From Clostridiales bacterium (GTDB lineage Bacteria; Bacillota; Clostridia; Oscillospirales; Acutalibacteraceae): 47,886 bases of DNA. Below, piece after piece: positions 1 to 47,886 of the stretch. Each line of letters starts with the position of its first letter. The stretch's first letter is position 1. Below the pieces are notes generated by a model. That model was not told where the DNA came from. It was given only the letters and a program-made list of their open reading frames with translations, and did not search any database. The stretch spans positions 1-47,886 of the forward strand of contig JAJQDK010000010.1 in NCBI GenBank assembly GCA_021202245.1. Direction: 5' to 3'. Position numbers and translations under genes: made by a program.

Positions 1-53
1 AATGATGAATGGCACCCGCCGCCTTAGTGGCGGGGGACATCTTTGCATAAGTT
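1..53 (+). repeat. 3' part of the long (~168 bp) composite hairpin element, cut by the window edge
   Basis: Near-identical to 6335-6387 and 12534-12586 (aatgat.aatg.cacccgccgccttag.ggcgggggacatcttt.cataagt). Confidence 0.9.
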
Positions 54-269
54 ATTACTGTAAATAATTATGACAAGTATCAGCTCCTGACAAACACTCT
101 GACAGCCGACTGACAAACAACTGACAAACAACCGACAATCGACCGACAACAATCAAAGAAAGTAAAGAATATAAAGAATGTTAAGAATGAAAAGAATAAT
201 ATATATACGTCAGCTTCCGCTGACAGGTGTGCGCCCTTTGGTTATCAGGATGTGATTAAATTCATTTAA
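51..269 (+). pseudogene. Fragment of a phage replisome-organiser/replication-initiator gene with internal origin iterons
   Basis: One frame reads VITVNNYDKYQ...*QTTDKQPTIDRQQSKKVKNIKNVKNEKNNIY..., with an in-frame TGA at 111-113 and no start codon. ITVxNYDKYQ and KNVKNEKN are recognised from memory as Firmicute phage initiator motifs. Confidence 0.65.
87..199 (+). repeat. Iteron-like direct repeats followed by an A-rich 9-bp tandem
   Basis: CYGACA cores at 87, 99, 110, 121, 132 and 143 (11-12 bp period), then (a/t)aagaa(t)nn units at about 155-199. Confidence 0.75.
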
Positions 270-375
270 TAATTATTTAAAATTCGGCGGATAAAAGTCA
301 AGCCGAATAAAGCATATAGCTTCACCCGGCTTTTTGGATTTGTATTTATTTATGCCCTAACCTATGTGTTATTTT

Positions 376-425
376 AACTCGGAGCTAAGCCCGATGTAAG
401 CTCGCTTAAGATTGGAAAATAGGTT
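376..425 (+). repeat. 50-bp short-form hairpin element (type S)
   Basis: aactcggagctaagcccgatgtaagctcgcttaagattggaaaataggtt; homologous to 6556-6604 (reverse), 25330-25379 and 28333-28382. Confidence 0.9.
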
Positions 426-442
426 ATTTTTTACGGGCAATC

Positions 443-484
443 AAAAACGCAGCACCGAGGAAATTACCTATCTGCGCTGCGTTT
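443..484 (-). terminator. Intrinsic terminator of glgB
   Basis: AAACGCAGC...GCTGCGTTT stem with a U-tract on the minus strand, just after the glgB stop. Confidence 0.65.
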
Positions 485-498
485 GCTTCTGTTTGATT

Positions 499-2607
499 TT
501 ATAACCTATTCGCCACTTTGCTCCGAGTTGAATCAGCCGTTAAGCTGTTTTTTTCTGTGCTTTCGGACTCTGCTTCCGTTTCCGCCGGAGCCGTGTCGGC
601 ATCCTCTGCGGCAACCTTCTCGGCAGCCTTTTCGTCCTTCAGCTTCTTTAGAGCCTCTTTCTTTTTCTCCGTCATCTTGGAGGTTGATTTCTTTCTGACG
701 GGAACGGGCAAAGCCTCCTTGAGCCTTAAATACATTACACCGAGGGGCGGAAGCGTGAGCTTAATCGAATACGGCAGCTCGTGATCCTTGACCTTTTTGC
801 TCTTGATGCTGTCGCCGTTGGTAACTCCGCAGCCGCCGAATTCCTCGCTTTCGGAATTAAACACTTCCTCATAAATTCCGTAAACGGGAACGCCGATTGT
901 ATAATCGTCACGCTGAACGGGCTGGAAGTTGCAGACGCAGATTATTTCACTGCCGTCCTCGGCAATTCTGCGGAAAGCGATAACGCTCTTTTGGTAGTCG
1001 TCAAGAGCTATCCATTGGAAGCCGTCCCAGTCGTAGTCGTTCTCATGCATGGCAGGTACGTCACGGTAGAATTTGTTTACCTCGGCAAAAAAGTGATTAA
1101 GCTGACGGTGCTTTTCATAATCAAGCAAATTCCACTCAAGCTGTGATTCGGCGTTCCATTCGTCGAACTGACCGATTTCACTGCCCATAAACATCAGCTT
1201 TTTGCCCGGATGAGCCATCATATAGGCAACAAAGCCTCTCACGCCGGCAAACTTTTGGTCGTAATCGCCCGGCATTTTATTTATAAGAGAGCCCTTGCCG
1301 TATACTGCCTCATCGTGTGAGATAGGCAGCATAAAGTTTTCGGAAAAGGCATAAACCATACTGAAGGTGAGCGTGTCGTGATGATAATTTCTCCACAGCG
1401 GGTCGAGCGAAATGTACGACAGCATATCGTTCATCCAGCCCATATTCCACTTGTAGTCAAAGCCGAGTCCCATATCCTTGATGGGATAACGTGTTACGTT
1501 GGGCCAAGCCGTGCTTTCCTCGGCAATCATCAAAGCCTCGGGGTGGAACATATGGACTACGGAATTGAGCTTCTGCAAAAAGTCAACGGCAACAAGGTTT
1601 TCTCTTCCGCCGTAGGCATTGGGCAGCCATTCGCCGTCCTTGCGGTTGTAGTCAAGATAAAGCATTGAAGCCACCGCATCAACACGGATGCCGTCAATAT
1701 GGTACATATCAAGCCAGAACATAGCAGAGGAAATCAAGAAGCTTGTGACCTCATAGCGGCCGTAATTAAATATATACGTGCCCCATTCCTTATGCTCGCC
1801 TATGCGGTAATCCTCATATTCATAGCAGCCGGTGCCGTCAAAGCGCGCCAGACCGTGGGCATCCTTGGGAAAATGAGCGGGAACCCAGTCCAGAATAACG
1901 CCTATTCCCTCTTCGTGGCACCTGTCGATAAAATACATCAGGTCCTTCGGCTCTCCGTAGCGTGAGGTTGCGGCAAAATAGCCGGTAACCTGATAGCCCC
2001 AGCTTCCGTCAAAGGGGAACTCGGTAAGAGGCATAAACTCAATGTGAGTGTAGCCCATTTCCTTTACATAGGGAATCAGCTCCTCGGCAAGCTTTCCGTA
2101 GCTGAAGGTGTTGCCGTCCTCATATTTGCGCCAAGAGCCTGCATTCATCTCATAAACATTTATAGGCTGCTTTGAGTGCGGATGCTCTTCTTTATATTTG
2201 TACCACGCCTCGTCGTGCCACTCATATCCGTTAATCTCATAAACACGGGAAGCGTTTTCGGGACGAGTTTGGCAATGAAAGGCATAGGGATCGGTTTTGA
2301 ACTGCCTTTGCGACCAGGGAGTTTCAACACAATATTTATAGCAGGCAAATTCCTGCACGCCCTCTATAAACAGCTCCCAAACTCCCGACTCGGAAATGCG
2401 GTACATAAAGTTTGCATCGCTGCCCCAGTTATTAACGTCGCCTACAACCGACACGCTCAAAGCGATGGGCGCCCATACTCTGAACACTACGCCGTTGCGG
2501 TTGTCCCAATTCACAAAATGCGAGCCTAAAAATTCATACGCATTGACAGACTCTCCCGCTAAGAATCGGTCAAGCGGCGGTCTTTCGTCATTTAATTTAT
2601 AAGCCAT
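499..2607 (-). CDS. glgB: 1,4-alpha-glucan branching enzyme (GH13_9) with a K/E/A-rich C-terminal tail
   Basis: FRVWAP, SWGYQ, DWVPAHFP, DGIRVDAVASM, AEEST, WNMGWM and SHDE motifs; start moved to ATG 2607 (RBS AGAGGG). Confidence 0.95.
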   Translation of the reverse strand: MAYKLNDERPPLDRFLAGESVNAYEFLGSHFVNWDNRNGVVFRVWAPIALSVSVVGDVNNWGSDANFMYRISESGVWELFIEGVQEFACYKYCVETPWSQRQFKTDPYAFHCQTRPENASRVYEINGYEWHDEAWYKYKEEHPHSKQPINVYEMNAGSWRKYEDGNTFSYGKLAEELIPYVKEMGYTHIEFMPLTEFPFDGSWGYQVTGYFAATSRYGEPKDLMYFIDRCHEEGIGVILDWVPAHFPKDAHGLARFDGTGCYEYEDYRIGEHKEWGTYIFNYGRYEVTSFLISSAMFWLDMYHIDGIRVDAVASMLYLDYNRKDGEWLPNAYGGRENLVAVDFLQKLNSVVHMFHPEALMIAEESTAWPNVTRYPIKDMGLGFDYKWNMGWMNDMLSYISLDPLWRNYHHDTLTFSMVYAFSENFMLPISHDEAVYGKGSLINKMPGDYDQKFAGVRGFVAYMMAHPGKKLMFMGSEIGQFDEWNAESQLEWNLLDYEKHRQLNHFFAEVNKFYRDVPAMHENDYDWDGFQWIALDDYQKSVIAFRRIAEDGSEIICVCNFQPVQRDDYTIGVPVYGIYEEVFNSESEEFGGCGVTNGDSIKSKKVKDHELPYSIKLTLPPLGVMYLRLKEALPVPVRKKSTSKMTEKKKEALKKLKDEKAAEKVAAEDADTAPAETEAESESTEKNSLTADSTRSKVANRL
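503..529 (-). repeat. Collapsed 27-bp mini copy of the element inside the last codons of glgB
   Basis: Minus strand AACTCGGAGCAAAG-TGGCG-AATAGGTT joins both ends of the type S element; encodes STRSKVANRL. Confidence 0.8.
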
Positions 2608-2678
2608 AAAAACCCTCTTTTCTAAAATGGTTGATATTACATTCAGTAAAAGCAAAGAATACAATTCAGCTTTTACTC

Positions 2679-2707: not shown

Positions 2708-2823
2708 GAGGTAAAATGGAATTTTCTGTAAAAAATTCAAGCAATCGTATTTAAGCATCATATGTATCGGATGAATTTACGCCTGTTTTTGAGCATATCC
2801 CCGAATATTTTTCAAACTTATTT

Positions 2824-2879
2824 AACCTAAGCAGCAAAAGCCCCCGCCTCTAAAAGCGGGGAGCATCGGCGAATAGGTT
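2824..2879. repeat. Hairpin element with TAACCTA...TAGGTTA termini, overlapping the tmcAL stop codon
   Basis: 7-bp terminal inverted repeat; internal ccccgc/gcgggg stem; right end ggcgaataggtt shared with 503-529. Confidence 0.75.
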
Positions 2880-4035
2880 ACCGGGTATTGGTCTGTGCAG
2901 CCGTACGTTTTATCTGCTCAGTGTAATCCTCTCCGCTCCTGCGTATTTTTCCGTATGCAAGAGCGGCAACATCCGTGGAATAAATATCCTTTTGCAGCAG
3001 CTCGGCAACGCTTCCGCCGAGCTTAAGCCCCTTGCTTGCTGAGGTCACCACGTTAAATTCACAGCTTTTCAGCAATGACGCTCCGTCCGAATTAAAGCCC
3101 AGCACCCTTACATATTCCACGGGCGTGCTTTGCAGCTCCTCTGTAATTTCAAGCAGCGCACAGCAGAGTATCCGCCTTATTCTTGCGTGAGTGTAGCGCT
3201 TGGTTTTTACGGCTGATATTATTTCTTCTGCGGAATTATATTGGCTTACCGCAGCGACAATTCTGTTTTCCAGTCCCTCGTTCACATCGGGAAGTCTGCG
3301 GAAATCCTCCGCAGTCATACTTCTCAGCCTGTACAGCAAAACCCTCTCAAGATTTTCAGGATAGGCAATGCTTTCAGGAACGCAGGGAACAAAGCTCTTG
3401 AACTCCGCATTTTTACGCATAAGCTCTCTGATGTAGGAAGCCGAAGCAATATTTCCGCTTGCGCTGCGGCTATCGTGAGCCGCTCCCCTGCGCTCAATCG
3501 CAAGCGGCTTTATCGAAGAATTTTCAATGCTTCTGAGGTATTCAACCGCAAGAATATTATTCGGAGCGGTGAGAACATCGGCAACCTCGTCCCCCAGCAC
3601 CTGTCTGACGGCGCTCTCAAGCGCGCGGGGATAATAGCCTCCGCCTTTCATCTCGGTATTTATCAGCTTCTGCACCTCGGAATTTTTCGTTGACTGCGCC
3701 GCCCTGCTCAACAGAGCGACGTCCTGAGTTTCACATCCGAACGCAAGGTGATTCACGCATTTGAACGACTTTGCACTCTCCGCACCGCAGCGGGCAAATC
3801 GCTGCGCGTTTGAAAGCGCATAAACGGCAGGCAGCTCCGCCACGAGGTCGGCTCCGTTTTGCAGCGCTGCTTCCGCCCTTGAAAACTTATCGGTAATTGC
3901 AGCCTCGCCCCGCTGGGTAAAGCTTCCGCTCATTATTGCAATCACGGGCTCACCGGTAATCTCCTTGGTCTTTTCAAGAAGATATTTATGCCCGTTATGA
4001 AACGGATTAAATTCACATATGACGGCTGTCGCCAT
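2878..4035 (-). CDS. tmcAL: tRNA(Met) cytidine acetate ligase (HIGH nucleotidyltransferase, YlbM family)
   Basis: EFNPFHNGH, MSGSFTQRGE, PNNILAVEY, ASASYIR and KTKRYT motifs. Confidence 0.9.
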   Translation of the reverse strand: MATAVICEFNPFHNGHKYLLEKTKEITGEPVIAIMSGSFTQRGEAAITDKFSRAEAALQNGADLVAELPAVYALSNAQRFARCGAESAKSFKCVNHLAFGCETQDVALLSRAAQSTKNSEVQKLINTEMKGGGYYPRALESAVRQVLGDEVADVLTAPNNILAVEYLRSIENSSIKPLAIERRGAAHDSRSASGNIASASYIRELMRKNAEFKSFVPCVPESIAYPENLERVLLYRLRSMTAEDFRRLPDVNEGLENRIVAAVSQYNSAEEIISAVKTKRYTHARIRRILCCALLEITEELQSTPVEYVRVLGFNSDGASLLKSCEFNVVTSASKGLKLGGSVAELLQKDIYSTDVAALAYGKIRRSGEDYTEQIKRTAAQTNTR

Positions 4036-5664: not shown

Positions 5665-5732
5665 TCAAAGTCCTCCTTTGTATTTGCTGTTAATATTGTT
5701 GACGCATAAAGCCGAATTATTCATTTGTTTTG

Positions 5733-5782
5733 AACAGAGCCGAGCGGATTTGTCCGCATAGCTCCGTCCGACGGCTTAGGTT
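5733..5782. repeat. 50-bp hairpin element (AAC...TAGGTT) overlapping the stop codon of the downstream-facing gene
   Basis: AAC-AG-AGCCG...CGGCT-TAG-GTT imperfect palindrome; minus strand begins TAACCTAAGC, as at 2823. Confidence 0.65.
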
Positions 5783-6158
5783 AAAAGAACAAAAGCATAA
5801 ATGCCGCCAACGCAATGCCGAAAGCGATGACAATCGCTCCGAAAATTCTCGTCCTTTTTATTGCGTTCTTCAGCTTGTATTTTGAAATCATATTTTCAGT
5901 CGGAAACGGCAGTATAAGAATCATAAGTCCCAAAATCAGGCAGCTGAGGGTTGAAATTGCCGCTCCGGCGGTTCTTGAAAACGAAAACAAAAAGATGCCG
6001 ACAGGTATGCCGAAAACGCAAATCATATTGATGACTGAAAAAAATCTTCCGAGCTTTTCGTTAAGCTCATAAAATTTATTTGCCTTTAGGTGGCAGTCAT
6101 CGCTGCAATACTGCTCAAAATATGTAATTTCCTTGGCACAGTATTCACATTTTTTCAT
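5781..6158 (-). CDS. Membrane protein with an N-terminal Zn-ribbon (DUF2116-like)
   Basis: CEYC-x10-CSDDC followed by three hydrophobic helices; ATG 6158 preferred to TTG 6167. Confidence 0.7.
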   Translation of the reverse strand: MKKCEYCAKEITYFEQYCSDDCHLKANKFYELNEKLGRFFSVINMICVFGIPVGIFLFSFSRTAGAAISTLSCLILGLMILILPFPTENMISKYKLKNAIKRTRIFGAIVIAFGIALAAFMLLFF

Positions 6159-6219
6159 CTGCAACAAAACCTTTCACTAAACCGTTGATAAATTATTTTC
6201 AGTATTTTTGATACGTTTT

Positions 6220-6387
6220 AAATCGGAGCAACGCTCTGTCAAGCTCGCTTGAAGCAGAGTTTGCGATAGGTTGCAGCTTGCAAAGGGAGCGTTAGCTTCT
6301 CAGTGTTTCAGCGGGAGATTACAACTCCCTCTGAAATGATAAATGGCACCCGCCGCCTTAGTGGCGGGGGACATCTTTACATAAGTT
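6220..6387 (+). repeat. Long composite hairpin element (unit A 6220-6272 + unit B 6275-6387)
   Basis: Full copy also at 12416-12586, partial copies at both window edges; multiple GC-rich stems; TA-flanked. Confidence 0.9.
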
Positions 6388-6416
6388 ATTTTAACACAAA
6401 CAGCATAGCTTTTCAA
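6388..6416 (-). promoter_or_regulatory. Sigma-A promoter directly abutting the element and reading into it
   Basis: TTGAAA-17bp-TAAAAT with a TGn extension on the minus strand. Confidence 0.55.
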
Positions 6417-6555
6417 CAAAAGCTGGATAAACATTTCGGCAATTTTGACCCTATGTTTTTTTATTTGCACTCCGAAACATTGCAATTTTGCAATGAATCT
6501 GCTATCATTTTATCATAATACAGGCTTTTTTAATTAAAGAACCTGTCCTAAGTTT

Positions 6556-6604
6556 AACCTATTAGCCAATTTAAGCGAACATACATCGGGCTTTGCTCCG
6601 AGTT
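6556..6604 (-). repeat. Type S element (49 bp) upstream of the response regulator, preceded by the mini unit aacctgtcctaagtt (6540-6554)
   Basis: Reverse complement aactcggagcaaagcccgatgtatgttcgcttaaattggctaataggtt. Confidence 0.85.
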
Positions 6605-6629
6605 AAAACAACGGCACGGAGGTGCGGAT

Positions 6630-8577: not shown

Positions 8578-8580
8578 TTT

Positions 8581-8636
8581 TACCCAAGCTGCAAAAGCTC
8601 ATGACTGTCTAGGCTGAAAACAGCTTGCATTAAGTT
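8581..8636 (+). repeat. Degenerate and collapsed element copies between the kinase and esterase genes
   Basis: tacccaagctgcaaaagc resembles taacctaagcagcaaaagc (2823); agcttgcattaagtt (8622-8636) matches unit B ends joined at TGCA. Confidence 0.55.
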
Positions 8637-8642
8637 ATATTT

Positions 8643-25237: not shown

Positions 25238-25266
25238 TTGTATCAAAAAAGTCGTAATGATATAAT
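25238..25266 (+). promoter_or_regulatory. Sigma-A promoter of the sas6-like gene
   Basis: TTGTAT-17bp-TATAAT with a TGn extension. Confidence 0.65.
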
Positions 25267-25329
25267 AAATCTATATATCCCCCGCCTCTGTAAGCGGCAG
25301 GAGATATACTGTCTTTCAGCAGGAAATTC

Positions 25330-25379
25330 AGCTCGGAGCAAAGCCCGATGCAAGCTCGCTTAAGATTCGCGAACAGGTT
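25330..25379 (+). repeat. Type S element in the sas6-like 5' UTR
   Basis: agctcggagcaaagcccgatgcaagctcgcttaagattcgcgaacaggtt. Confidence 0.85.
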
Positions 25380-25489
25380 GTAATTACCCGCTGAAGGCAG
25401 GCGGAGTCTTGCTCCGCTATAAATAATTTAATATAGCTCCAATGACAAATTAAGTCGGAGTCAGTATTATTTCAGGAGGAAAATTTAAC

Positions 25490-28292: not shown

Positions 28293-28333
28293 AAACACGC
28301 CCGAAGTGAGATAATCATTTCGGGCGTGTTTTT
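28293..28333. terminator. Terminator between the sas6-like gene and ldh
   Basis: AAACACGCCCGAA/TTCGGGCGTGTTT inverted repeat. Confidence 0.8.
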
Positions 28334-28382
28334 ACTCGGAGTAAGGTCCGATGTAAGCTTGCTTAAGATTGGTTAATGGGCT
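28333..28382 (+). repeat. Type S element, diverged
   Basis: 37/50 identical to 25330-25379 by manual ungapped comparison; same orientation. Confidence 0.8.
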
Positions 28383-28408
28383 GAACCGGCTATTCGTTTT
28401 TCTTTGAT

Positions 28409-30482: not shown

Positions 30483-30484
30483 TT

Positions 30485-35268: not shown

Positions 35269-35272
35269 ACCG

Positions 35273-35518: not shown

Positions 35519-35527
35519 AAATCACCT

Positions 35528-36280: not shown

Positions 36281-36283
36281 ACT

Positions 36284-36916
36284 TTAAGCCTCTATTGCTT
36301 CAAGGATAAGCTTCGTTGTATCATCAACGCTGTCCTGTCCCTCTACATTTACAAGCTTGTTCTGCTTTTTGTAGTAGTCAACAAGGGGCTCGGTCTCTTT
36401 GTGATATACATCAAGACGTGCAAGTACGGTGTCGGGGTGGTCGTCCTTGCGCTGAACAAGGGTGCCTCCGCAATCGTCGCATACTCCATCCTTCTTGGGC
36501 TTTAAGTTCACAAGATGATAGGGTTTGCCGCAATTTTCGCAGACACGGCGTCCGGACATACGGTTGATAATTCTTTCGTCAGCTACGTCGATGTTGATAA
36601 CGTACTGAATATCAACGCCCATTTTGTCCAGAGCCTCAGCCTGAGGAATGGTTCTGGGGAAGCCGTCAAGAATGAAACCCTTTTTGCAGTCATCCTCGGC
36701 AAGTCTTTCTTTGACAATGCCGATTACAACCTCGTCGGGAACAAGCTTGCCTTCATCCATAAAGGACTTAGCCTTCAAACCCATCTCAGTGCCGTTTTTC
36801 AGCGCTTCACGGATCATATTACCGGTAGAAATTGTGGGAATATCGAAGTGCTCGCAAAGTACAGCGGCTTGAGTGCCTTTTCCTGCACCGGGAGCGCCCA
36901 ACATAATAATGTTCAT
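36284..36916 (-). CDS. adk: Adenylate kinase (Zn-LID)
   Basis: GAPGAGKGTQ and LDGFPRT, two CxxC in the LID. Confidence 0.97.
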   Translation of the reverse strand: MNIIMLGAPGAGKGTQAAVLCEHFDIPTISTGNMIREALKNGTEMGLKAKSFMDEGKLVPDEVVIGIVKERLAEDDCKKGFILDGFPRTIPQAEALDKMGVDIQYVINIDVADERIINRMSGRRVCENCGKPYHLVNLKPKKDGVCDDCGGTLVQRKDDHPDTVLARLDVYHKETEPLVDYYKKQNKLVNVEGQDSVDDTTKLILEAIEA

Positions 36917-36938
36917 TATTATACTCCTTTAAAACTGA

Positions 36939-38249
36939 TTAGTCAAGAAATCCTTTGTAGTGACGCATCATCATCTGAGATTCAAGCTGCTTAACGGTAT
37001 CAAGAGCAACACCTACAAGAATGATAATTGACGTACCGCTGATTGACATCATTCCCATTCCCGTTGCAGCTCCGTAAATATGGGGAACCATTGCGATAAC
37101 TGCAAGGAAGAGAGCGCCGATCAATGTGATTCTTGACAGAATATTTTTGATGTATTCTGCTGTCGGAGCACCCGGACGAATACCGGGGATTGTACCGTTG
37201 TTTGCTTTCAGATTGTTGGCCATTTCAACAGGATTGTACTGAATAGTTGTGTAGAAATAAGCGAACATTATAATGAGGATAAAATACAATACCAAATACA
37301 ACCATCCGGTGGTATCAAAGGCGGCAAAGAACTTGCCCCAGAAGCCGTCATCCTCTTCTAAGCCGATGAACAGATTGATTGTACCGGGAATTGATAAAAT
37401 TGAGCTGGCAAAAATGATAGGAAGCACGCCGCCGAGAGCAACCTTGATGGGAAGATGGCTTGACTGGCCGCCGTACATTTTTCTGCCTACTACACGCTTA
37501 GCGTACTGAATAGGGATACGTCTTTCGCTGTCCTGCATAAATGTGATAACCCAGATAACAGCGATAAAGATAACAGCCCAAAGAGGTACGAGTACATAGT
37601 ACTGAGTAGCGCCGTTTGAACCGAGTGCCCAATACTGACCGAGCGTGCTGATTGTTGTGGGGAGCTGAGCAACGATGCCGGCAAAAAGTAGAATGGAAAT
37701 ACCATTTCCTATGCCGTGAGAGTTGATCTGCTCACCGAGCCACATCATTAACGCCGTGCCGGCGGTAAACACAAGAATAATTACAACCGCTGCAAACCAC
37801 ATATCAAAGCCTGAGTTGTAAACGGTAACGCCGCTGCTCTTCAGATAGAAGAAGTATGCGGTGCCCTGAATAAGGCCGAGACCAACGGTTACATAACGTG
37901 TAATTGTGCTGATTTTACGTCTGCCTGCTTCGCCCTCCTTTGCCATTCTCTCCAATGGAGGAATAGCAACGGTGAGGAGCTGCATAATGATGGAGCTGTT
38001 GATATACGGAGTGATACCCATTGCAAACAAGGTTGCGTTTGAAAAGGCACCGCCCGAAAGTGTGTTGATGTAGGCAAGCATTGTGTTGCCTGTTTCAAAT
38101 CCGCCCATTGCATCCGCAAGTGCGGTTTGGTCAAGAAATGGAACCGGAATTACGGAACCGATTCTGAATATGATAACGATTAAAAGTGTAAATAAGATTT
38201 TCTTTCTGAGTTCAGGAATTGCCCAAGCGTTTCTTATTGTTTTAAACAC
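36939..38249 (-). CDS. secY: Preprotein translocase SecY
   Basis: GITPYINSSII, GIGNGIS and IPGIRPG motifs. Confidence 0.97.
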   Translation of the reverse strand: MFKTIRNAWAIPELRKKILFTLLIVIIFRIGSVIPVPFLDQTALADAMGGFETGNTMLAYINTLSGGAFSNATLFAMGITPYINSSIIMQLLTVAIPPLERMAKEGEAGRRKISTITRYVTVGLGLIQGTAYFFYLKSSGVTVYNSGFDMWFAAVVIILVFTAGTALMMWLGEQINSHGIGNGISILLFAGIVAQLPTTISTLGQYWALGSNGATQYYVLVPLWAVIFIAVIWVITFMQDSERRIPIQYAKRVVGRKMYGGQSSHLPIKVALGGVLPIIFASSILSIPGTINLFIGLEEDDGFWGKFFAAFDTTGWLYLVLYFILIIMFAYFYTTIQYNPVEMANNLKANNGTIPGIRPGAPTAEYIKNILSRITLIGALFLAVIAMVPHIYGAATGMGMMSISGTSIIILVGVALDTVKQLESQMMMRHYKGFLD

Positions 38250-38693
38250 TTAAACCACCTCAGCCTTTCCGCCGGCAGCCTCAATAGCAGCTTTAGCTGA
38301 CTCGGAAAAAGCTGAAACCTTTACAGTAAGTTTCTTATCGAGTTTGCCGTTACCAAGAATTTTAACGGCGTCAAAACCGTTCTTAATCACGCCTGCATTA
38401 ACGAGAGCCTCAGCGTCAACCGTTGCTCCGTCATCAAACTTTCTGTTTAGTGTGCTGAGATTGATTGCAGCTACGTTTTTAGCAAAGATGTTGTTAAAAC
38501 CTCTTTTTGGAACACGACGCTGTAACGGCATCTGACCGCCTTCAAAGCCCGGACGGATACTGCCGCCTGAGCGAGCCTTCTGTCCCTTGTGACCCTTGCC
38601 GGCTGTTTTGCCCCAGCCTGAGCCGTGTCCTCTGCCGATTCTTTTGGGAGCCTTTTTGGATCCTTCAACCGGTGAAAGTTCGTGTAACTTCAT
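38250..38693 (-). CDS. rplO: 50S ribosomal protein L15
   Basis: GRGHGSG.GKT.G.G.KGQ and GFEGGQMPL. Confidence 0.97.
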
Positions 38694-38712
38694 TTAATTC
38701 GCACCTCCCTGC

Positions 38713-38883
38713 TTACGCTTCACTAACCTCTATGAGGTGGATAATTTTTGCTGCCTTGCCCTTTGTCTGAGGGTTATCGGGCTGAACGGTTGTGTCGCCG
38801 ATTTTCTTCAGACCCAAAGCGTGGGCGGTTGCAATCTGATCCTTTTTAGCGCCGATAAGGCTTTTTACTAATTTAATTTTCAT
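38713..38883 (-). CDS. rpmD: 50S ribosomal protein L30 (not in the ORF track)
   Basis: Translated by hand: [29 protein letters not shown]...; lies between rpsE and rplO. Confidence 0.9.
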
Positions 38884-38900
38884 CTTAAGCAACCTCCCTA

Positions 38901-39398
38901 TTATAAAATTTCCTTAACGGATTTACCACGGATAGCAGCAACTTCATCAGCTGTTCTGAGAGCCGAAAGACCTGCAAGAGTAGCTCTTACAACATTGCAG
39001 GGGTTGTTTGAACGAAGAGCCTTTGTTCTGATATCCTTAATGCCTACTGCCTCTACAACGGCACGAACCGGGCCGCCTGCGATAACGCCGGTACCGGGTG
39101 CGGCGGGCTTCATAAGAACCTTACCTGCGCCGTATTCGCCGATTATCTCGTGCGGAATTGTTGTGCCTCTGAGAGAAACCTTCATAAGATTTTTCTTTGC
39201 GTCCTCAATACCCTTGCGGATAGCGTCGGGAACCTCGCCTGCTTTGCCGATACCGAAACCAACGGTTCCGTTGCCGTCGCCGACAACCACGAGAGCCGCA
39301 AATTTAAAAATTCGTCCGCCCTTAACCGTCTTTGATACACGGTTAATGGTAACTACTCTTTCCTTTAATTCGCCTGTTATTTCAACTGTTTTAGCCAA
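38901..39398 (-). CDS. rpsE: 30S ribosomal protein S5
   Basis: [12 protein letters not shown] and PGTGVIAGG. Confidence 0.97.
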
Positions 39399-39416
39399 AG
39401 TTATTCCTCCTCTTCC

Positions 39417-39776
39417 TTAGAAATTGAGGCCGCCCTCACGAGCGCCTTCGGCCAATTCTTTTACACGGCCGTGATATATGTTACCGCCTCTGTCGAATAC
39501 AACATCGGTGATATTCTTTTTCTTGGCACGCTGCGCAATAAGTGCGCCGACTGCCTTTGCTGCCTCTTTGTTTCCGCCATTACCCGTAATGGTCTTGTCA
39601 AGGCTTGATGCCTGAGCAAGTGTTACACCGGCTACGTCGTCAATAATTTGAGCGTAGATATTGTTAGTAGAGCGGAATACGCACAAACGCGGACAAGCTG
39701 CTGTTCCGCTGACTTTGCTGCGGACTCTCTTATGGCGTTTTGCGCGTGCCTTTTTTGTATCAGGTCTGCTTACCAT
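39417..39776 (-). CDS. rplR: 50S ribosomal protein L18
   Basis: PRL.VFRS and VVFDRGG..YHGRV. Confidence 0.97.
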
Positions 39777-39794
39777 TTATAATTCACTCCTTAA

Positions 39795-40337
39795 TTATTT
39801 GCCCTTACCGGCCTTGCCTTCCTTGCGGCGAATAACTTCATCAGCGTACTTAATACCTTTGCCCTTATACGGCTCCGGTGGACGCTTTTCTCTTACTTCG
39901 GCAGCAAACTGACCAACCTTTTGCTTATCAATGCCGACAATAACAATCTTGTTGGGATCGGGAACTTCAATCTTGATGTCGTCCGTATCCTCAACAATTA
40001 CCTGGTGAGAAAAACCGAGGTTCATAACGCATTTGTTGCCCTGCTTCTGGACACGGTAACCAACGCCGTTTACTTCAAGCTCCTTCTTGTAGCCTTCGGT
40101 AACACCGATCACCATATTGTTGATAAGTGTTCTTGTAAGGCCGTGAAGCGAGCGGTTTTCTTTTGCATCATCCGGACGAGTAACCTCAATTACGTTGTCC
40201 TTGATTTCAACTGTCATAGCGGGGTTGTACTTGAAATCGAGCGTTCCCTTGGGTCCTTTGACAGTGATTACGCCGTCAGCAATAGTAGCTGTAACTCCGG
40301 CGGGAATATTTATAGGTTTTCTTCCAATTCGAGACAT
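39795..40337 (-). CDS. rplF: 50S ribosomal protein L6
   Basis: MSRIGRKP and PEPYKGKGI. Confidence 0.97.
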   Translation of the reverse strand: MSRIGRKPINIPAGVTATIADGVITVKGPKGTLDFKYNPAMTVEIKDNVIEVTRPDDAKENRSLHGLTRTLINNMVIGVTEGYKKELEVNGVGYRVQKQGNKCVMNLGFSHQVIVEDTDDIKIEVPDPNKIVIVGIDKQKVGQFAAEVREKRPPEPYKGKGIKYADEVIRRKEGKAGKGK

Positions 40338-40352
40338 TTATCGCACCTCCTC

Positions 40353-40751
40353 TTACCAAATGTAAGCGAGAACTTCGCCGCCAACATGCTCTTTGCGTGC
40401 CTGACGGTCTGTCATAACACCCTTAGATGTGGAAATGATGGCGATTCCGAGTCCCTTCATTACCTTTGGCATATCTTCTGCATTGCTGTAAATACGTAAA
40501 CCGGGCTTAGACACACGGCGAAGACCTGTGATAACAGGAGTCTTGTCTGCTGTGTATTTAAGATTTACTTTAATTACGCCCTGCTTGCCGTCTTCTATAA
40601 CTGTGAAATTCCTGATGTAGCCCTCGTCAACAAGAATCTGACAAATGGCTTTTTTCAGGTTTGATGAAGGAATTTCAACAGAGTCGTGCTTTGCTGAGTT
40701 AGCATTACGGATTCTTGTAAGCAAATCAGCGATTGTATCTGTAATCTGCAT
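40353..40751 (-). CDS. rpsH: 30S ribosomal protein S8
   Basis: [11 protein letters not shown] and [10 protein letters not shown]. Confidence 0.97.
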
Positions 40752-40771
40752 TGCGTTTTACCTCCCTTTAC

Positions 40772-40957
40772 TTACCAGCTTGCTTTCTTTACGCCCGGGA
40801 TTTCGCCCTTGTAAGCGAGCTCACGGAAACAAATACGACATACACCATACTTGCGAAGGTAGGCGTGTGGTCTGCCACAGATTTTACATCTTGAATATTC
40901 CCTTGTAGAGAATTTTTGCTTTCTCTGCTGCTTTACCTTCATTGAAGTCTTAGCCAC
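40772..40957 (-). CDS. rpsZ: 30S ribosomal protein S14, Zn-binding type Z
   Basis: RCKICGRP...CRICFRE...PGVKKASW. Confidence 0.95.
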
Positions 40958-40969
40958 AACAATCCCTCC

Positions 40970-41509
40970 TTACTTTGAAAACGGAGCGCCCATAAGAGCC
41001 AGCAGCTCACGAGCTTCTTCGTCTGTGTTTGCGGTTGTTACAAAGCAAATGTCCATACCGCGTACCTTGTCAATCTTGTCATAATCAATCTCAGGGAATA
41101 TAAGCTGTTCCTTAAGGCCCATATTGTAGTTTCCTCTGCCGTCAAAGGAATCGGGATTGATGCCTCTGAAATCTCGTACACGGGGAAGTGCAATGTTGAA
41201 GAGTCTGTCGAGAAATTCATACATTCTCTCGCCTCTGAGAGTTACCTTGCAGCCTATCGGCATACCCTCTCTGAGCTTGAAGTTAGCAACTGATTTTCTT
41301 GCTCTGCATATGAGAGGCTTCTGACCTGTGATGGCAGAAAGATCCTTGCAGATTGCGTCAATTACCTTTGAGTTTTCTCTTGCTTCGCCTGCGCCCACGT
41401 TGACAACAATTTTGTCAAGCTTGGGAATTTGCATTGTGCTCTTATAGGAGAACTTTTTCATAAGAGCAGGTGCAACTTCATTTGAATAATATTCTTTAAG
41501 TCTTGCCAT
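40970..41509 (-). CDS. rplE: 50S ribosomal protein L5
   Basis: [11 protein letters not shown] and LPRVRDFRG. Confidence 0.97.
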
Positions 41510-41523
41510 ATCTTATTTCCTCC

Positions 41524-41841
41524 TTAAAGTGCTTCGCCGCATTTAACGCAAACTCTGCCCTTGGAGCCGTCCTCATAAATCTTGTGGCCGACTCTTGTAG
41601 GCTTTTTGCAGCGAGGGCAAACAATCTGAACCTTAGACGCATACATAGCGCCCTCAGCCTTGATTATACCGCCCTGTTCGCCCATCTTTCTGGGCTTAAC
41701 GTGCTTTGAAACCATATTGATTTTTTCTACGATTACTTTGCCTTCTTTGGGGCTAACCTCGAGAACCTGTCCCTTTTTGCCCTTATCCTTACCGCTGATA
41801 ACGATAACGGTGTCGCCTGTTTTTACATGAACCTTACTCAT
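41524..41841 (-). CDS. rplX: 50S ribosomal protein L24
   Basis: GDTV.VISGKDKGK. Confidence 0.96.
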   Translation of the reverse strand: MSKVHVKTGDTVIVISGKDKGKKGQVLEVSPKEGKVIVEKINMVSKHVKPRKMGEQGGIIKAEGAMYASKVQIVCPRCKKPTRVGHKIYEDGSKGRVCVKCGEAL

Positions 41842-41856
41842 AGTGTGACACCTCCA

Positions 41857-42225
41857 TTAAAGTACTTCGGGAGCGAGAGATAAAATCTTCATAAAGTCCT
41901 TATCACGAAGCTCTCTTGCTACCGGTCCGAAGATACGAGTACCTCTCGGGTTCTTATCTTCCTTAATAATTACAGCCGCATTTTCATCAAAACGGATGTA
42001 TGTGCCGTCCTCACGTCTTACGCCCTTTGCGGAACGAACGACAACGGCTCTTACAACGTCGCCCTTTTTAACAACACCGCCGGGTGCTGCTTTTTTAACA
42101 GAGGCAACTATAACATCGCCAATATTGGCATATCTCCTTCTGGTACCGCCGAGTACACGAATGCACATAAGTTCCTTTGCGCCGGTGTTGTCGGCAACCT
42201 TGAGGATGGTTTGCTGTTGAATCAC
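41857..42225 (-). CDS. rplN: 50S ribosomal protein L14
   Basis: VADNTGAK and [12 protein letters not shown]. Confidence 0.97.
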
Positions 42226-42258
42226 AGTGTATTCCTCCTTTTCTCAAAGCCGCTAAAC

Positions 42259-42519
42259 TTATTTAGCTTTCTCAATAATCTCGACGAGTCTCCATCTTTT
42301 ATCCTTAGAAAGAGGACGGGTCTCCATAACCTTTACACGGTCGCCAATGCTGCACTCGTTGTTCTCATCGTGCGCCTTAAAGCGAACTGTACGCTTAACA
42401 ATTTTATTATAAAGCTTATGCTTTACGCTGTCTTCAACGGCAACAACAATTGTCTTGTCCATCTTGTTGCTTACAACTTTTCCGACAACCGTTTTTCTCA
42501 TATTTCTGTTTTCACTCAC
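42259..42519 (-). CDS. rpsQ: 30S ribosomal protein S17
   Basis: [11 protein letters not shown] and [11 protein letters not shown]. Confidence 0.97.
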
Positions 42520-42536
42520 TGTTAAGTCCTCCTCTC

Positions 42537-42740
42537 TTAAGCTTCCGTACCGTCGATTTCACGCTGACGGAGTATGGTAGATACTCTTGCGATATCCTTC
42601 TTAACGGCACCGATTCTGGATGAGTTTTCAAGCTGATTAACAGCAAGCTGAAAACGAAGATTGAATAATTCTTCCTTGAGTTCAGTGAGCTTTGTCTGAA
42701 GCTCCTCAACCGTCATATCTCTGAGTTCCGATGCTCTCAT
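42537..42740 (-). CDS. rpmC: 50S ribosomal protein L29
   Basis: ELFNLRFQ...DIARV.T. Confidence 0.95.
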
Positions 42741-43159
42741 TACTGCTCACCCTCCTCTTTTTTAACAAACTTGCATTTGATGGGAAGCTTTGTAGAAGCA
42801 AGACGAAGAGCCTCTCTTGCTGTAGCTTCATCTACACCGCCAAGCTCAAACATAACCTTGCCGGGTTTAACAACTGCTGCCCAATACTCGGGAGCGCCCT
42901 TACCTTTACCCATACGGGTTTCGGCAGGTCTTGCCGTGATGGGCTTGTCGGGGAAGATTTTAATCCAAACCTTACCGAATCTTTTGCAGTAACGAGTCAT
43001 AGCGACACGGGCTGCCTCAATCTGATTTGAGGTAATCCAAGCGGGCTCGGCAGCCTGAAGGCCGTAATCGCCGTAAGTAACTTTGTTACCGCGAAGAGCC
43101 TTACCGGTCATACGACCTCTCTGTACTCTTCTGTACTTAACTCTCTTAGGTAATAACAT
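42740..43159 (-). CDS. rplP: 50S ribosomal protein L16
   Basis: [10 protein letters not shown] and [12 protein letters not shown]. Confidence 0.97.
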
Positions 43160-43830
43160 TACTTTCTGCCTCCTTCTCTGCGGGGCTTCCTCGATTTAAC
43201 CTCGTTAAGAACTTCACCCTTGTAAAGCCATACCTTAACGCCGATTTTGCCGTAGGTTGTGTTAGCCTCTGCGAAACCGTAGTCAATATCTGCACGAAGC
43301 GTCTGAAGCGGAATTGTACCCTCATGGTACTGTTCGGAACGGGCAATTTCAGCACCGCCGAGACGGCCCGAACACATAATCTTGATACCCTTCGCACCGC
43401 GGCGCATAGCGTTGCCGATTGACTGCTTCATGGCGCGGCGGAATGAAATTCTCTTTTCAAGCTGCTGAGCAACGTTTTCAGCTACAAGCTGAGCGTCAAG
43501 CTCGGGAGCCTTTACTTCAATAATATTGATAGCAACGGGCTTGTTAAGCATCTTTTCGCACTGGAGCTTGAGCTTCTCGATTTCGGAGCCGCCCTTGCCG
43601 ATAACAAGACCGGGCTTAGCGCAGTGAATACTGATTCTTACCTTTTTGCCGTCGCGCTCAATTTCAATCTTTGAGATACCGAAGTTGTAAAGCTGAGCCT
43701 TCAGTGTTTTACGGAGGTTATAATCCTCAACAAGCGTATCGCCGAAGTCTTTTTTGTTTGCAAACCAACGTGAATCCCAATCTTTAATTACACCGACACG
43801 AAGTCCGTGCGGATTAACTTTCTGACCCAT
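43159..43830 (-). CDS. rpsC: 30S ribosomal protein S3
   Basis: [11 protein letters not shown] and [11 protein letters not shown]. Confidence 0.97.
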
Positions 43831-43844
43831 AATTTAACCTCCTC

Positions 43845-44201
43845 TTAGTCTTCTTTTTCCTTGAGTACGAGGGAAATGTGAGAAGTTCTCTTGTTAATTC
43901 TGAACGCTCTGCCCTGTGCTCTCGGACGAATTCTTTTAAGGATGGGGCCTGCCGTAGCGTTGCACTCTGCAACGTAGAGCCTGGATACATCCATATCATG
44001 GTTGTTCTCAGCGTTTGCCATAGCTGAACGGAGCAGCTTTAAAAGCGGCTCGCAAGCGGCTTTGGGAGTGTGCTTGAGAACAGCTTCCGCATACTTAACA
44101 TCCTTGCCTCTGATGAGGTCGATGACTACGTTAACCTTGCGGGGTGAAATACGAACAAATTTAGCATTTGCCCTTGCTTCAGTCTGTGTTTCCATCTGCA
44201 T
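43845..44201 (-). CDS. rplV: 50S ribosomal protein L22
   Basis: RISPRK and [15 protein letters not shown]. Confidence 0.96.
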
Positions 44202-44215
44202 TACTCTCCTTCCGC

Positions 44216-44488
44216 TTATTTAGACGTTTTGGAACCGGCATGACCCTTAAAGGTTCTCGTCGGCGCAAATTCACCGAGCTTGTGACCTACCATATCCTCG
44301 GTCACATATACCGGAACGTGTTTTCTGCCGTCGTGAACGGCAAAGGTATGACCTACAAATTCAGGGAAAATTGTTGAACTTCTTGACCAAGTCTTTAAAA
44401 TTCTCTTTTCGCCCGATTCGTTCATCTCAAGAACCCTTTTGAGCAGTACAGGCTGAACAAAGGGACCCTTTTTAGTACTTCTACTCAT
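44216..44488 (-). CDS. rpsS: 30S ribosomal protein S19
   Basis: KTWSRSS and [13 protein letters not shown]. Confidence 0.97.
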
Positions 44489-44511
44489 AGTTATAAGCTC
44501 CTTTCTCTGCC

Positions 44512-45345
44512 TTACTTACCGTTTCTTCTGCGAACGATAAGCTTATCGCTGCTCTTGTTGTTCTTACGAGTCTTATAGCCGAGTGCGGGCTTACCCCAAG
44601 GGGTAACAGGGCCCGGACGGCCTACGGGAGATTTACCTTCACCGCCGCCGTGGGGGTGGTCGTTCGGGTTCATTACGGAACCGCGCACGGTGGGTCTCCA
44701 ACCCATATTTCTCTTGCGACCTGCTTTACCGATTTTTACATTCTCGTGGTCAATGTTGCCAACCTGTCCGATTGTAGCCATACAAGCTTCGGGAACATTT
44801 CTCAGCTCGCCGGAGGGAAGTCTTAACAGTGCTAAACCGTTTTCCCTTGCCATAAGCTGAGCCATATTGCCTGCCGAACGAGCAAGCTGAGCGCCCCTGC
44901 CGGGGTAAAGCTCTACGTTGTGGATGAATGTACCTACAGGAATAGCTGTAAGCGGTAATGCGTTGCCGGGTTTGATATCGGCATTTTCGCCTGCGAGCAC
45001 CTTGTCGCCTACCTTAAGTCCCTCGGGAGCAATAATGTAAGCTTTCTCGCCGTCGGTGTATTCAACAAGAGCGATAAACGCCGAACGGTTGGGATCGTAC
45101 TCTAATGTTTTTACTGTGCCTTCAACGTCAAATTTCTGACGCTTGAAGTCGATGATGCGGTACTTTCTGCGGTTGCCGCCGCCTCTGTGACGAACGGTGA
45201 TTCTTCCGTAGCTGTTGCGGCCTGCCTTTTTGTTTAAAGGAGCAAGTAAGCTTTTTTCCGGATCAACCTTTGAAAGAGCCGAATAATCTGTAACCGACAT
45301 ATTTCTTCTTGAGTTAATGGTCGGTTTGTATACTTTAATGGCCAT
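44512..45345 (-). CDS. rplB: 50S ribosomal protein L2
   Basis: EYDPNRSA and [13 protein letters not shown]. Confidence 0.97.
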
Positions 45346-45421
45346 TTGATTTCACTCTCCTCATGATGGCTTTGCGGGAATATGGCTTTTCCCATACATT
45401 CTGCCTGACTTGATTTCAGGC

Positions 45422-45715
45422 TTACATCATGCCTTCAAAAAATTCTATAGGCTTGCTGTCTTCTGCAAGTGTGATGATTGCTTTTTTCCAGCTCTTGGTG
45501 TAGCCGCCGTTGTTTCTGCCCTGACGGCGGAACTTACCTCTTACGCTGACGGTGTTTACCTTGGCAACCTTAACCTTGAAAACCTCTTCGCAAGCTTTTG
45601 CGATTTCAATTTTGTTTGCTGATTTGGCAACTTCAAAGGTATATACCTTGTTTGCCGCACCGATCATACTTTTTTCAGTAATTATCGGGCGAATTACAAT
45701 ATCATGAGCTATCAT
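45422..45715 (-). CDS. rplW: 50S ribosomal protein L23
   Basis: PIITEKS and WKKAI. Confidence 0.95.
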
Positions 45716-46335
45716 GCATATACCTCCTCAATCTTGCTTACGGCATCCTTAACAATAACGAGCTTGTCAGCGTTCAGAATGTCATACACATTAAGGGTGT
45801 TTACCTGAGCTGTCTTAACTCCGGGAATATTGCTTGCCGATTTAATAACCTTGCTGTCAACCTCGGGAAGTACAATAAGAGCCTTTTTGTCAGCCTCTAT
45901 TGCCTTGAGCATTGCAACAACTGTTTTGGTTTTATATTCGTCCATTGTAATTGAGTCAACAACTACAATCTCGTTCTCCTTAGCCTTTGAAGAGAAAGCC
46001 GACTTCATTGCAAGACGTCTTACCTTCTTGTTTACAGAGAATCTGTAATCTCTGGGCTTGGGAGCGAATACAACGCCGCCGTGTGTCCACTGCGGAGAAC
46101 GTGTCGAACCCTGTCTTGCACGTCCTGTGCCCTTTTGTCTCCACGGCTTTTTGCCGCCGCCGGAAACCTCTGCTCTTGTAAGAGCGGACTGTGTGCCCTG
46201 GCGCTGAGCAGCAAGATAGCTCAATACCATCTGATGCATAACAGCTTCATTGGGCTCAATACCGAATACGGAATCGGAAAGGTCGATTGAACCAACCTTT
46301 TTGCCTTCCATATCTACTACTGCTAAATTTGGCAT
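45712..46335 (-). CDS. rplD: 50S ribosomal protein L4
   Basis: [15 protein letters not shown]. Confidence 0.97.
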
Positions 46336-46351
46336 TTATAATCCCCCTTCC

Positions 46352-46984
46352 TTAAGCCTTAACGGAATCTTTAATTACTACGATTCCCTTATTTGGTCCG
46401 GGAACAGCGCCCTTAACAGCAATAAGGTTGTTCTCTGAGTCAACCTTAACGACTGTGAGGTTCTGAACTGTTACCCTCTCTGCGCCGAGATGACCTGCCA
46501 TCTTCTTGCCCTTCCAAACACGAGAGGGCGATGAGCAGGCACCGATTGAACCGCCGTGACGAACGCAGGGGCCTGTACCGTGGGATTCCTTAAGGCGCTG
46601 GAAGTTCCAACGCTTGATAACGCCTGCGGTACCCTTACCTTTGCTCTTGCCGGTTACGTCAATCTTGTCGCCGGGGGTGAATACATCTGCCTTAACGAGG
46701 TCGCCTATGTTGTAGGCGTCTGTGTCGTCAAAGTGGAACTCTTTAAGAGTCTTTTTGGGAGCTACACCCGATTTGTCAAAAAATCCCTTCATAGGCTTTG
46801 TAACCTTGTGCGGTTTCATATCGCCGAATCCGAACTGAACCGATGCGTAGCCGTCGTTTTCAACTGTTTTCTTGGCTGTAACCACGCAAGGACCTGCCTC
46901 GATAACAGTTACGGGAATAAATACTCCCTTTTCATCGAAAATCTGTGTCATTCCGACTTTCTTGCCGATGATTGCTTTTTGCAT
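46352..46984 (-). CDS. rplC: 50S ribosomal protein L3
   Basis: [15 protein letters not shown] and KGAVPG. Confidence 0.97.
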
Positions 46985-47086
46985 TTTTGTATCCTCCTTA
47001 TAGGTTATTGGTTGGCGTCTGCCAACTTGACCCTGTCTGCTTGTAGGTTGGTATAAGATTTAAGCTAAGCAAGTGTGATGAGCTGA

Positions 47087-47398
47087 TTATAACTTAATCT
47101 CGATATCAACGCCGGCAGGGAGCTCTAAGCTCATAAGAGCCTCGACTGTCTTGTTTGACGGTCTTAAGATGTCGATAAGACGCTTGTGGGTTCTGATTTC
47201 AAACTGCTCACGGCTGTCCTTATATTTGTGAACGGCACGGAGAATTGTAACAATCTGCTTCTCAGTGGGAAGCGGAACCGGACCCGAAACTCTTGCGCCT
47301 GTGCGCTTAGCCGTAGCCACGATTCTCTCTGCCGACTGATCGACGAGCTGATGGTCATAACCCTTTAATCTTATTCTAATCTTTTCCTTGACTGCCAT
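47087..47398 (-). CDS. rpsJ: 30S ribosomal protein S10
   Basis: IRIRLK, GPVPLPT and SREQFE.RTHKR. Confidence 0.97.
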
Positions 47399-47409
47399 AT
47401 CGTCGCCTC

Positions 47410-47720
47410 CTTAAAAATTTAGTTGGCGGGCGTTTGCTTCCAAAACTTTTTGAAACTCTGCCGGGTGTTTCCTCACCCCGCATTAAAAAACCCGTTTAAC
47501 TGTTCAGTTAACCGGGAACATCCTGAAAGCCGCAGAGCGCACTTACGGCAAAGCAACCCCATTGCCGTGTCAGCTCCTTTGTTTCATTGTAAATCGCCCG
47601 GTTTAAAATCGGACATACTCCACGGAAAAACCGGCAAAATTGCCGCAACCTCCCGCTTCATCGCATATCTATGTGCAGTCACGCAAGGATTATTATACTA
47701 TGAAAGCCGTTTAAATTCAA
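47410..47720 (-). promoter_or_regulatory. S10 operon promoter and long structured leader
   Basis: TTGAAT-17bp-TATAAT (47720-47692); leader of about 285 nt containing GCGATGAAGCGGGAGGTTGC and ACACCCGG, resembling Firmicute rpsJ leaders. Confidence 0.6.
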
Positions 47721-47791
47721 TAATTTTGCAAAATTATCCGTGTAGAATTTTTTGAAAATTTATCCTTAAAATTTTGTTAGATTTGCACATA

Positions 47792-47819
47792 TTGCAAAAT
47801 CGCCGCTTTCCTGTATAAT
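47792..47819 (+). promoter_or_regulatory. Plus-strand sigma-A-like promoter reading into the terminal element
   Basis: TTGCAA-16bp-TATAAT. Confidence 0.5.
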
Positions 47820-47838
47820 TGAATTAAGAGTTAATTTT

Positions 47839-47886
47839 AAATCGGAGCAACGCTCTGTCAAGCTCGCTTGAAACAGAGCTTGCGAT
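47839..47886 (+). repeat. 5' part (unit A) of the long element, cut by the window edge
   Basis: aaatcggagcaacgctctgtcaagctcgcttgaaacagagcttgcgat differs from 6220-6267 at two positions. Confidence 0.9.

Follow-up and report, generated by a model that had tools for sequence, protein, structure and literature searches.

The dispersed repeats of the 47,886-nt window, which is the whole contig C26 (JAJQDK010000010.1) of a Clostridiales bacterium of the Acutalibacteraceae (GCA_021202245.1; 1.82 Mb in 153 contigs, 97% complete; here the source genome, G000), are copies and shortened remnants of one gene-less mobile element of about 175 nt that belongs to gut Clostridia. The element is real, mobile and apparently undescribed, and its junction is defined: it inserts at TT|ATA (or TT|AAA), sharing the TT and producing no target duplication. 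Inside it lies a GATT-GC-AACC box that is complementary to both the left-end AATC and the right-end GGTT. A first-pass annotation of the window had listed 15 stretches, every one present in the sequence as given, and had read them as hairpins with fixed ends and interchangeable interiors.

The parent element was defined from stretches found by a pattern scan of GTDB (101 stretches, of which 80, from 37 genome records, were listed) by way of two alignments, A1 and A2. It consists, in order, of the left end TTTAAATCGG, the hairpin of module A, the box, module B, in which a closing stem encloses three hairpins, and the right end AGGTT followed by ATA. Apart from a few chimeras, each short copy of the window is a colinear subset of this parent or of a sister subfamily, and the interiors that had seemed interchangeable are mostly nested internal deletions. 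Elements with both ends numbered 92 in the source genome, and 84 of them were of the types L-R1 (43), L-R2 (21) or L-R3 (20); chimeras (L-L, R3-R3, R3-R1, and 50-nt heads fused to module B) were present as well. The 168-nt type is young (20 copies, 3.9% from the consensus) and the 50-nt type older (32 copies, 9.8%). Deletion between internal repeats would give rise to the short copies, some of which seem to be independently mobile. A fourth subfamily, with left end TTCAATAAGGGCTTG and right end CTTGCCC..AGTTATA, was seen at C9:44363-44412, C23:9326-9371 and C153:6513 of the source genome and in the genomes G384 and G405 (L516, L524).

Models of the left end (L) and of three right ends (R1, R2, R3) were built from the source genome itself and compared with locally shuffled DNA, giving 165 versus 1, 78 versus 7, 47 versus 0 and 92 versus 4 matches at 15 bits. 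At 17 bits or more, 361 ends were found genome-wide, grouped in 275 loci, and only 23 of them fell inside open reading frames (ORFs) of at least 150 aa, although such ORFs cover 76% of the genome; the placement at gene boundaries described earlier is borne out. So is the absence of copies from the ribosomal superoperon, as no end was found across the ribosomal-protein block (29,400-47,800). With these same models, 13 of the 15 stretches contained at least one end at 17 bits or more; the stretch 5733-5782 had no match and was judged by eye to be a degenerate copy ending GGCTTAGGTT. The conserved ends reach 3 nt beyond the limits first assigned, reading TTT-AA... on the left and ...GTT-ATA or GTT-AAA on the right. 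Orientation relative to genes was even (17 same, 18 opposite).

Comparison of filled and empty sites established the junction. Between two genomes that are 92-98% identical (G123 and G166), seven sites were compared: three were shared, two were deletion-eroded in G166, and two were empty in one genome. In the cleanest pair, with flanks 93% identical, the empty site (L177) reads GTCACAT-TTATA-TGTTAC and the filled one (L032) GTCACAT-TTTAAATCGG...G-TTATA-TGTTAC. Only TT is common to both L032 junctions, which does not fit a TA duplication, since this would leave one more T. A second pair (L198 and L219) is consistent with an empty site given one substitution beside a small duplication, and in a third (L199/L222 against C12 of the source genome; flank identity 70-81%) the empty site reads GAAGA-TTATG. 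The TA flanks reported earlier are indeed present at both ends of most copies, but with empty sites reading TTATA or TTATG and sharing TT only, they are not a duplication. A scan of the 92 paired elements for a target duplication of variable length found none (best z 3.4 over 864 boundary and length tests).

Other comparisons agree with movement at this target. The copy at 12413 is missing at that position in all three congeners compared, two of which carry a different copy or remnant further along. Against recent activity, the site at 6217 may be common to the distant genome G043, where the flank alignment is poor. Among 13 printed rows of head-to-tail junctions, nine were genuine by eye, and all nine read G/A-TTT-AAATC, with three T. 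Three T are expected if a new copy enters the TTATA regenerated at the right end, or if circles multimerise. The host flank is linked to the end type, R1 and R2 being followed by ATA and R3 by AAA in 21 of 22 cases. With empty orthologous sites observed and no enzyme gene found adjoining the copies, the earlier proposal of a non-autonomous mobile element is upheld.

To evaluate the fold, a hand-set structure of 56 pairs was tested on 58 rows of alignment A2, with fragmentary and near-identical rows omitted. In these rows 91.4% of the cells were paired, compared with 32-42% in slid controls, and two-sided changes occurred in 34 of the 56 pairs, against 18.4 in shuffles. Helix 1, formed by the left-end AATC and the GATT of the box, was 99.1% paired and almost invariant, and is therefore uninformative on covariation. 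The AACC of the box pairs with the right-end GGTT; in 6-8 rows this pairing is replaced by AATC/GATT or AGCT/AGTT, and in 19 of the 58 the third pair is disrupted. The left AAC had been supposed to pair with the right GTT, whereas in the full-length parent it is the internal AACC that pairs with the right-end GGTT.

The same structure appeared when a copy from another family was folded as DNA with no constraint, at -46.4 kcal/mol (z -9.5) on the plus strand and -38.6 kcal/mol (z -6.8) on the minus strand. In G384, a divergent subfamily of 144 nt retains, by eye, an ATT-C-AAC box that fits its own ends with a one-base bubble, although the pairing of this box appears only in part in computed folds. 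In the window, the full-length element at 6217..6390 comprises the left end, the module A hairpin, an internal GGTT-GC-AGCT box (a variant of GATT-GC-AACC), a four-way junction as module B, and the right end. The description of the family as hairpins holds for full-length copies, which fold well (z = -5.5), but not for most short ones, which fold poorly (z = 0.39 for 373-428 and 0.16 for 8578-8639).

From these data we propose, at a probability of about 40%, that the element moves as a folded single-stranded circle integrated by one strand exchange, with a tyrosine recombinase, probably the Xer-type enzyme of the host, acting in trans. Circularization would join the ends as GG-TT-TA-AATC, the sequence of the tandem junctions, and the joined ends would pair with the box. 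The joined stems would then stack into one duplex site whose 6-nt spacer sets TTTAAA against TTGCAA, with the middle two bases mismatched, and this site would sit between two bulged arms, which is a folded geometry of the attC type. Cutting the circle at G|TT and the double-stranded target at N|TT (N|TTATA) would exchange the TT-led strands, and the junction would be resolved by replication. In a preprint, IntI is described as placing folded single-stranded attC sites into minimal double-stranded genome sites with one cut (bioRxiv 10.1101/2022.09.11.507474). A wider and more speculative version, to which we give less credence than to the strand exchange, is that the element is a gene-less "solo cassette", consisting only of a self-completing single-stranded site, that hijacks the chromosome-resolving tyrosine recombinase of its host and rides phages and integrative and conjugative elements (ICEs) across Clostridia.

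A series of observations weighs against strand exchange by a host tyrosine recombinase. It is difficult to draw how such an enzyme would excise a single copy, given the unpaired host arms. The base before TT in the target (n=86) was A in 41 cases, T in 31, G in 11 and C in 3, so that the G needed by IntI is mostly absent. Of the 92 paired elements, 43 are of the short 50-nt L-R1 form, more than of any other type, yet this form lacks the box and its folding does not surpass that of shuffles; one copy is nested inside another element (25327..25382) although boxless, and in G092 the same short forms recur at several loci. The counts of two-sided changes are inflated by relatedness, and G.T and A.C were nearly even over the chosen pairs (113 to 91). 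Among the matches listed for a conspecific run (X1, about 98.7% identical), on which this comparison rests, no empty site was found in 16.5 kb of the window or 18.8 kb of contig C102, which speaks against recent activity; three further runs (X2-X4) covered small shares and were left unused. No enzyme gene linked to the element was found, and G137 (84% complete) gave no tyrosine-recombinase match. To our knowledge Xer is near-universal, so its presence in carriers says little. An element lay within 1.5 kb of 3 of 30 integrase loci (E<0.05), and next to the xer gene of G015, which we tentatively read as chance in element-rich genomes. A scan of the source genome for dif-like sites returned 67 loose matches and no clear site.

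The search for an enzyme agrees with the earlier view that any trans-acting enzyme is encoded away from the copies. No mobile gene recurred among 490 neighbouring ORFs. Of six recombinase and transposase families searched in the source genome, the sole full-length product was a 330-aa Xer-like protein, the integrases being broken; Y1, resolvase, IS110, Y2 and IS630 domains gave no match there, though metagenome-assembled genomes (MAGs) may lose such genes. Seven proteins from the source genome and G015 compared with IntI reached at best 81 bits with TIGR02249, below its cut-off of 265. The source genome and the fetched loci contained no gene between the ends, no element split around a gene, and no larger copy of the kind envisaged earlier, with a recombinase or transposase between the same ends; a few apparent split copies were rejected as separate copies or another repeat. 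An arrangement of both ends as outward XerD-like arms was dropped, as the crossover falls inside those arms. Separately, a family of tyrosine recombinases of about 280 aa was noted in Clostridia (L524:1444-2283, L017:1189-2031); an element lies about 190 nt ahead of the start of one member, and L017, L512 and L520 have none nearby.

An alternative that we regard as possible but rather unlikely is a non-autonomous element of IS200/IS605 or RAYT type, moved by a Y1 HUH transposase through peel-and-paste. Read on the minus strand, host (T)ATAA or (T)TTAA stands before one end, with the element's own TAAA closing the other. This explanation accounts for single-copy excision and the one-sided target better than the strand exchange that we favour, and it fits the lack of duplication, the precisely healed empty site and the hairpins near both ends, as well as the link between flank and end type. 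In IS608, guide and target follow a base-by-base pairing rule. Here, a tetranucleotide 12-16 nt inside the element covaries with the flank, ATGT occurring with ATAA and AAGT with TTAA, as the IS608 guide/target pairs in PMC5934647 would suggest. That tetranucleotide is itself paired in helix 7, however (92% paired, with three of three pairs compensatory), the other end yielded no matching guide, AAGT occurs with ATAA in the counter-examples L044 and L113, and the better-folding strand is the opposite one. Nor was the enzyme found: four of 13 carrier genomes (the source genome, G166, G422 and G333) gave no Y1 match, none of 25 Y1 loci scanned (9 + 16) had an element nearby, and no Y2/IS91 domain was detected in five genomes in a search that had no positive control.

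A double-stranded DNA route, in which a serine recombinase of the IS607/TnpX type or an IS110-type enzyme would act through a 2-bp core and the fold would serve as an RNA guide or be incidental, is improbable. A shared dinucleotide core without duplication is typical of these families, IS110 bridge RNAs are similar in length, and the persistence of unfolded 50-nt forms would be explained. Against this, the source genome has no resolvase, the other four genomes searched have only large ones (494-719 aa) with no element within 1.5 kb, and IS110 was found in none of five genomes. In addition, the target is specified over no more than about 5 nt, and the box, in contrast to the guides of bridge RNAs, pairs with one and the same strand at the two ends of the element.

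Still less probable is an RNA-mediated route, in which the fold would act in a transcript and a reverse transcriptase would turn this back into DNA. Both ends are sharp, with no 5' truncation series or tail, and the GTTA/GTCA and 2-nt loops match what we take to be stable DNA hairpin motifs. On the other side stand the G.U-type pairs at consensus positions (GU in 26 and 25 of 47 at two columns), a CUUG-like loop, and the transcription reported for the bcr1 repeat in PMC3184786. The one reverse transcriptase associated with a copy is retron-like; it is encoded in a phage contig of 94 kb (L255:5993-7147, minus strand), at a distance of 1.9 kb from the full-length copy there, a link that is a single case.

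The last two alternatives are highly unlikely. The first-pass comparison with TA-duplicating miniature elements of IS630 or ERIC type has the TA at both ends of most copies in its favour, but it predicts an empty site of flank-TTTATA-flank where TTATA is observed and two T at tandem junctions where nine of nine have three, the end consensuses share only about 5 outer bases and form no true inverted repeats, and PF13358 was found in none of 10 carrier genomes compared with 5 of 14 controls, with the reservation that MAGs can lose insertion sequence copies. The exchange of interiors between fixed ends, as in shuffled cassettes, is suggested by the chimeras and by 50-nt heads joined to module B, but not by the 84 of 92 paired elements whose interiors are colinear subsets of one parent, by the even orientation, or by the lack of genes between the ends.

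The element resembles bcr1 and a cassette-less attC, but belongs to neither, nor to Clostridiales-1. As the reviews describe it, bcr1 (the group A repeat of the Bacillus cereus group) is about 155 nt long and dispersed in many copies, with two independent stem-loops showing compensatory changes, non-conserved positions, a TTTAT motif and a proposed mechanism resembling site-specific recombination (PMC3184786, PMC6542083). On that description, its copies lie between direct repeats of 5 bp and occur in the B. cereus group only, whereas the present element has a Clostridia host, a four-way junction in module B, and flanks of TTTAA and TTATA with a shared core of 2 nt in place of 5-bp TTTAT repeats. 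Clostridiales-1 (RF01699; PMC2864571) is likewise a multi-stem, multicopy motif of gut Clostridia, about 168 nt long, with a GCTTGC/GCTCGC hairpin tip and a GGAG..GC-GTA-GC hairpin. Its seed ends, TGATACC...GGTATCA, pair mutually as P1, and its hairpin order differs. The membership that had been suspected from the ends was not supported, with no covariance-model match at the 48-bit gathering cut-off, nor at E<=5-10; searches for RF01699 in sets of 1, 101 and 151 genomes, which had no positive control, found it in none, and an Rfam cmscan of the window gave only the S10 leader at gathering score, with chance matches at E<=5-10. The rows in supplement 5 of PMC2864571 show many copies per genome and GC-GTA-GC loops, and Clostridiales-1 may also be a mobile single-stranded DNA element rather than a small RNA.

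The comparison with integron attC sites made at the outset proved apt. The likeness lies in the G|TT crossover, its AAC partner in a folded single strand, a site completed on circularization, tandem stacking at the regenerated end and minimal genomic targets; in the computed fold, the AAC...G|TT pairing occupies the outer pairs of helix 4. The element differs in having no genes, no arrays, random orientation, no IntI and no target G, and its copies are dispersed beside unrelated housekeeping genes rather than arranged as co-oriented gene cassettes. Complete integrons are given as absent from Firmicutes genomes in PMC4889954. With REPIN and PATE elements and IS200/IS605 ends (Y1 HUH) it shares a non-autonomous, hairpin-rich, intergenic character, the lack of duplication, and a short AT-rich one-sided target, seen here as a host tetranucleotide beside one end, but it has no GTAG/CGTC foot, no free guide tetranucleotide at both ends and no linked Y1. 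A literature search, with subscription papers and bioRxiv supplements outside its reach, found no description of the family.

Named records carrying the repeat are gut Clostridia. An 18-nt left-end pattern matched 50 of 151 genomes of the genus, mostly once or twice and in some cases by chance in uvrB, while four genomes had 20-79 matches. A covariance model found the element in 11 of 151 Clostridia genomes sampled from the class (source genome included), in eight genera, with scores of up to 197 bits in other families. Full copies were present in two phage contigs (L151, L255) and one ICE-like locus (L047). Together, these data suggest that the element spread horizontally, and phages and ICEs would ferry copies between lineages. 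GenBank phages and PLSDB plasmids gave no meaningful match; viral scans found a real element in 1 of 2 matches, 1 of 31 matches and then none, with none among the 80 scanned of 120 loci, and no close empty phage relatives were found.

The copies in the window are collected in Table 1. Both contig ends cut through a copy, and in three copies the outer TTA of the target is the stop codon of a convergent gene (at 2878, 5781 and 15162). The stretches 25268-25312 and 25330-25379 are both real but form a single nested structure, the former being weak alone.

Table 1. Copies and remnants of the element in the window (CM, covariance model).
Position	Strand	Feature
1..56	+	Full-length (E168-type) element truncated by the contig start, 3' part; has right end R2
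373..428	+	Deletion derivative of 50 nt with ends L (left) and R1 (right)
500..532	-	Minimal L-R1 remnant, 27 nt, in the final codons of the glgB ORF
2821..2882	+	56 nt, right ends R3 and R1 joined back to back; the outer TTA serves as stop codon of convergent gene 2878-4035
5730..5785	+	Degenerate short copy, R3-like right end; outer TTA is the stop of gene 5781-6167
6217..6390	+	Full-length element, CM 168.8 bits, fold z -5.5
6540..6554	.	Doubtful 15-nt remnant next to the following copy; no end-model match
6553..6607	-	50-nt L-R1 derivative
8578..8639	.	Degenerate short copy; R3 end 28.5 bits
12413..12589	+	Full-length element upstream of a TetR-family gene, CM 174.8 bits
15072..15166	+	89-nt L-R3 derivative; the outer TTA serves as stop codon of gene 15162-15581
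25261..25454	-	Old element, decayed but with hairpins a, b and c recognisable, interrupted in the hairpin b loop; CM 35.8 bits
25327..25382	+	50-nt L-R1 copy nested in the hairpin b loop of 25261..25454 at TT|GTA
28330..28385	+	50-nt L-R1 derivative, right end decayed
47836..47886	+	Full-length element truncated by the contig end, 5' part

Genes in the window include glgB, ackA, a response regulator, rpoBC and ldh, together with an S10-Clostridia ribosomal protein leader (47594-47669, minus strand, 50.8 bits). The glgB ORF has a long, charged, low-complexity tail past its family match (499-620) that closes in the 27-nt remnant, and the glgB stop (499-501) is the TAA of the TTATAA flank of that remnant. 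An unpaired R3-type end of 22.6 bits at 25058, directly after rpoC, was absent from the earlier list. A low-complexity repeat at 75-260 combines CTGACAAAC runs with AAAGAAT runs and has about five copies in the source genome. A distinct family of mosaic repeats, made up of hairpins tagged with GTAG, CCCCTCAAGGGG-type hairpins and runs of heptamers, occupies 13236-13842 and many contig ends of the source genome; RAYT-like Y1 genes accompany such repeats in G015 and G092 (L183, L185) and were not found in the source genome. Elsewhere in that genome, an ORF at L014:1-354 (contig C82), whose start presumably resembles a Cas9 N-terminus, has a 50-nt element and a broken integrase upstream.

No mobilising enzyme is known for the structured orphan repeats of Firmicutes, bcr1 and Clostridiales-1 among them. 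In the present family the ends and the target are defined, empty alleles exist, and the fold predicts precisely where recombination takes place; with these in hand the question becomes testable with oligonucleotides. Hundreds of intergenic sites per genome are reshaped by its copies, which can also interrupt genes and which break metagenome assemblies, as at both ends of contig C26. What stands out in the element is its self-completing junction. Should it prove to be a solo cassette, a phylum that lacks integrons would turn out to harbour integron-type chemistry, and other orphan repeats, such as bcr1 and Clostridiales-1, would gain a candidate model. If the host Xer acts on it, a 175-nt cassette inserting at a 5-nt target would constitute a new route of DNA mobility and a possible tool.

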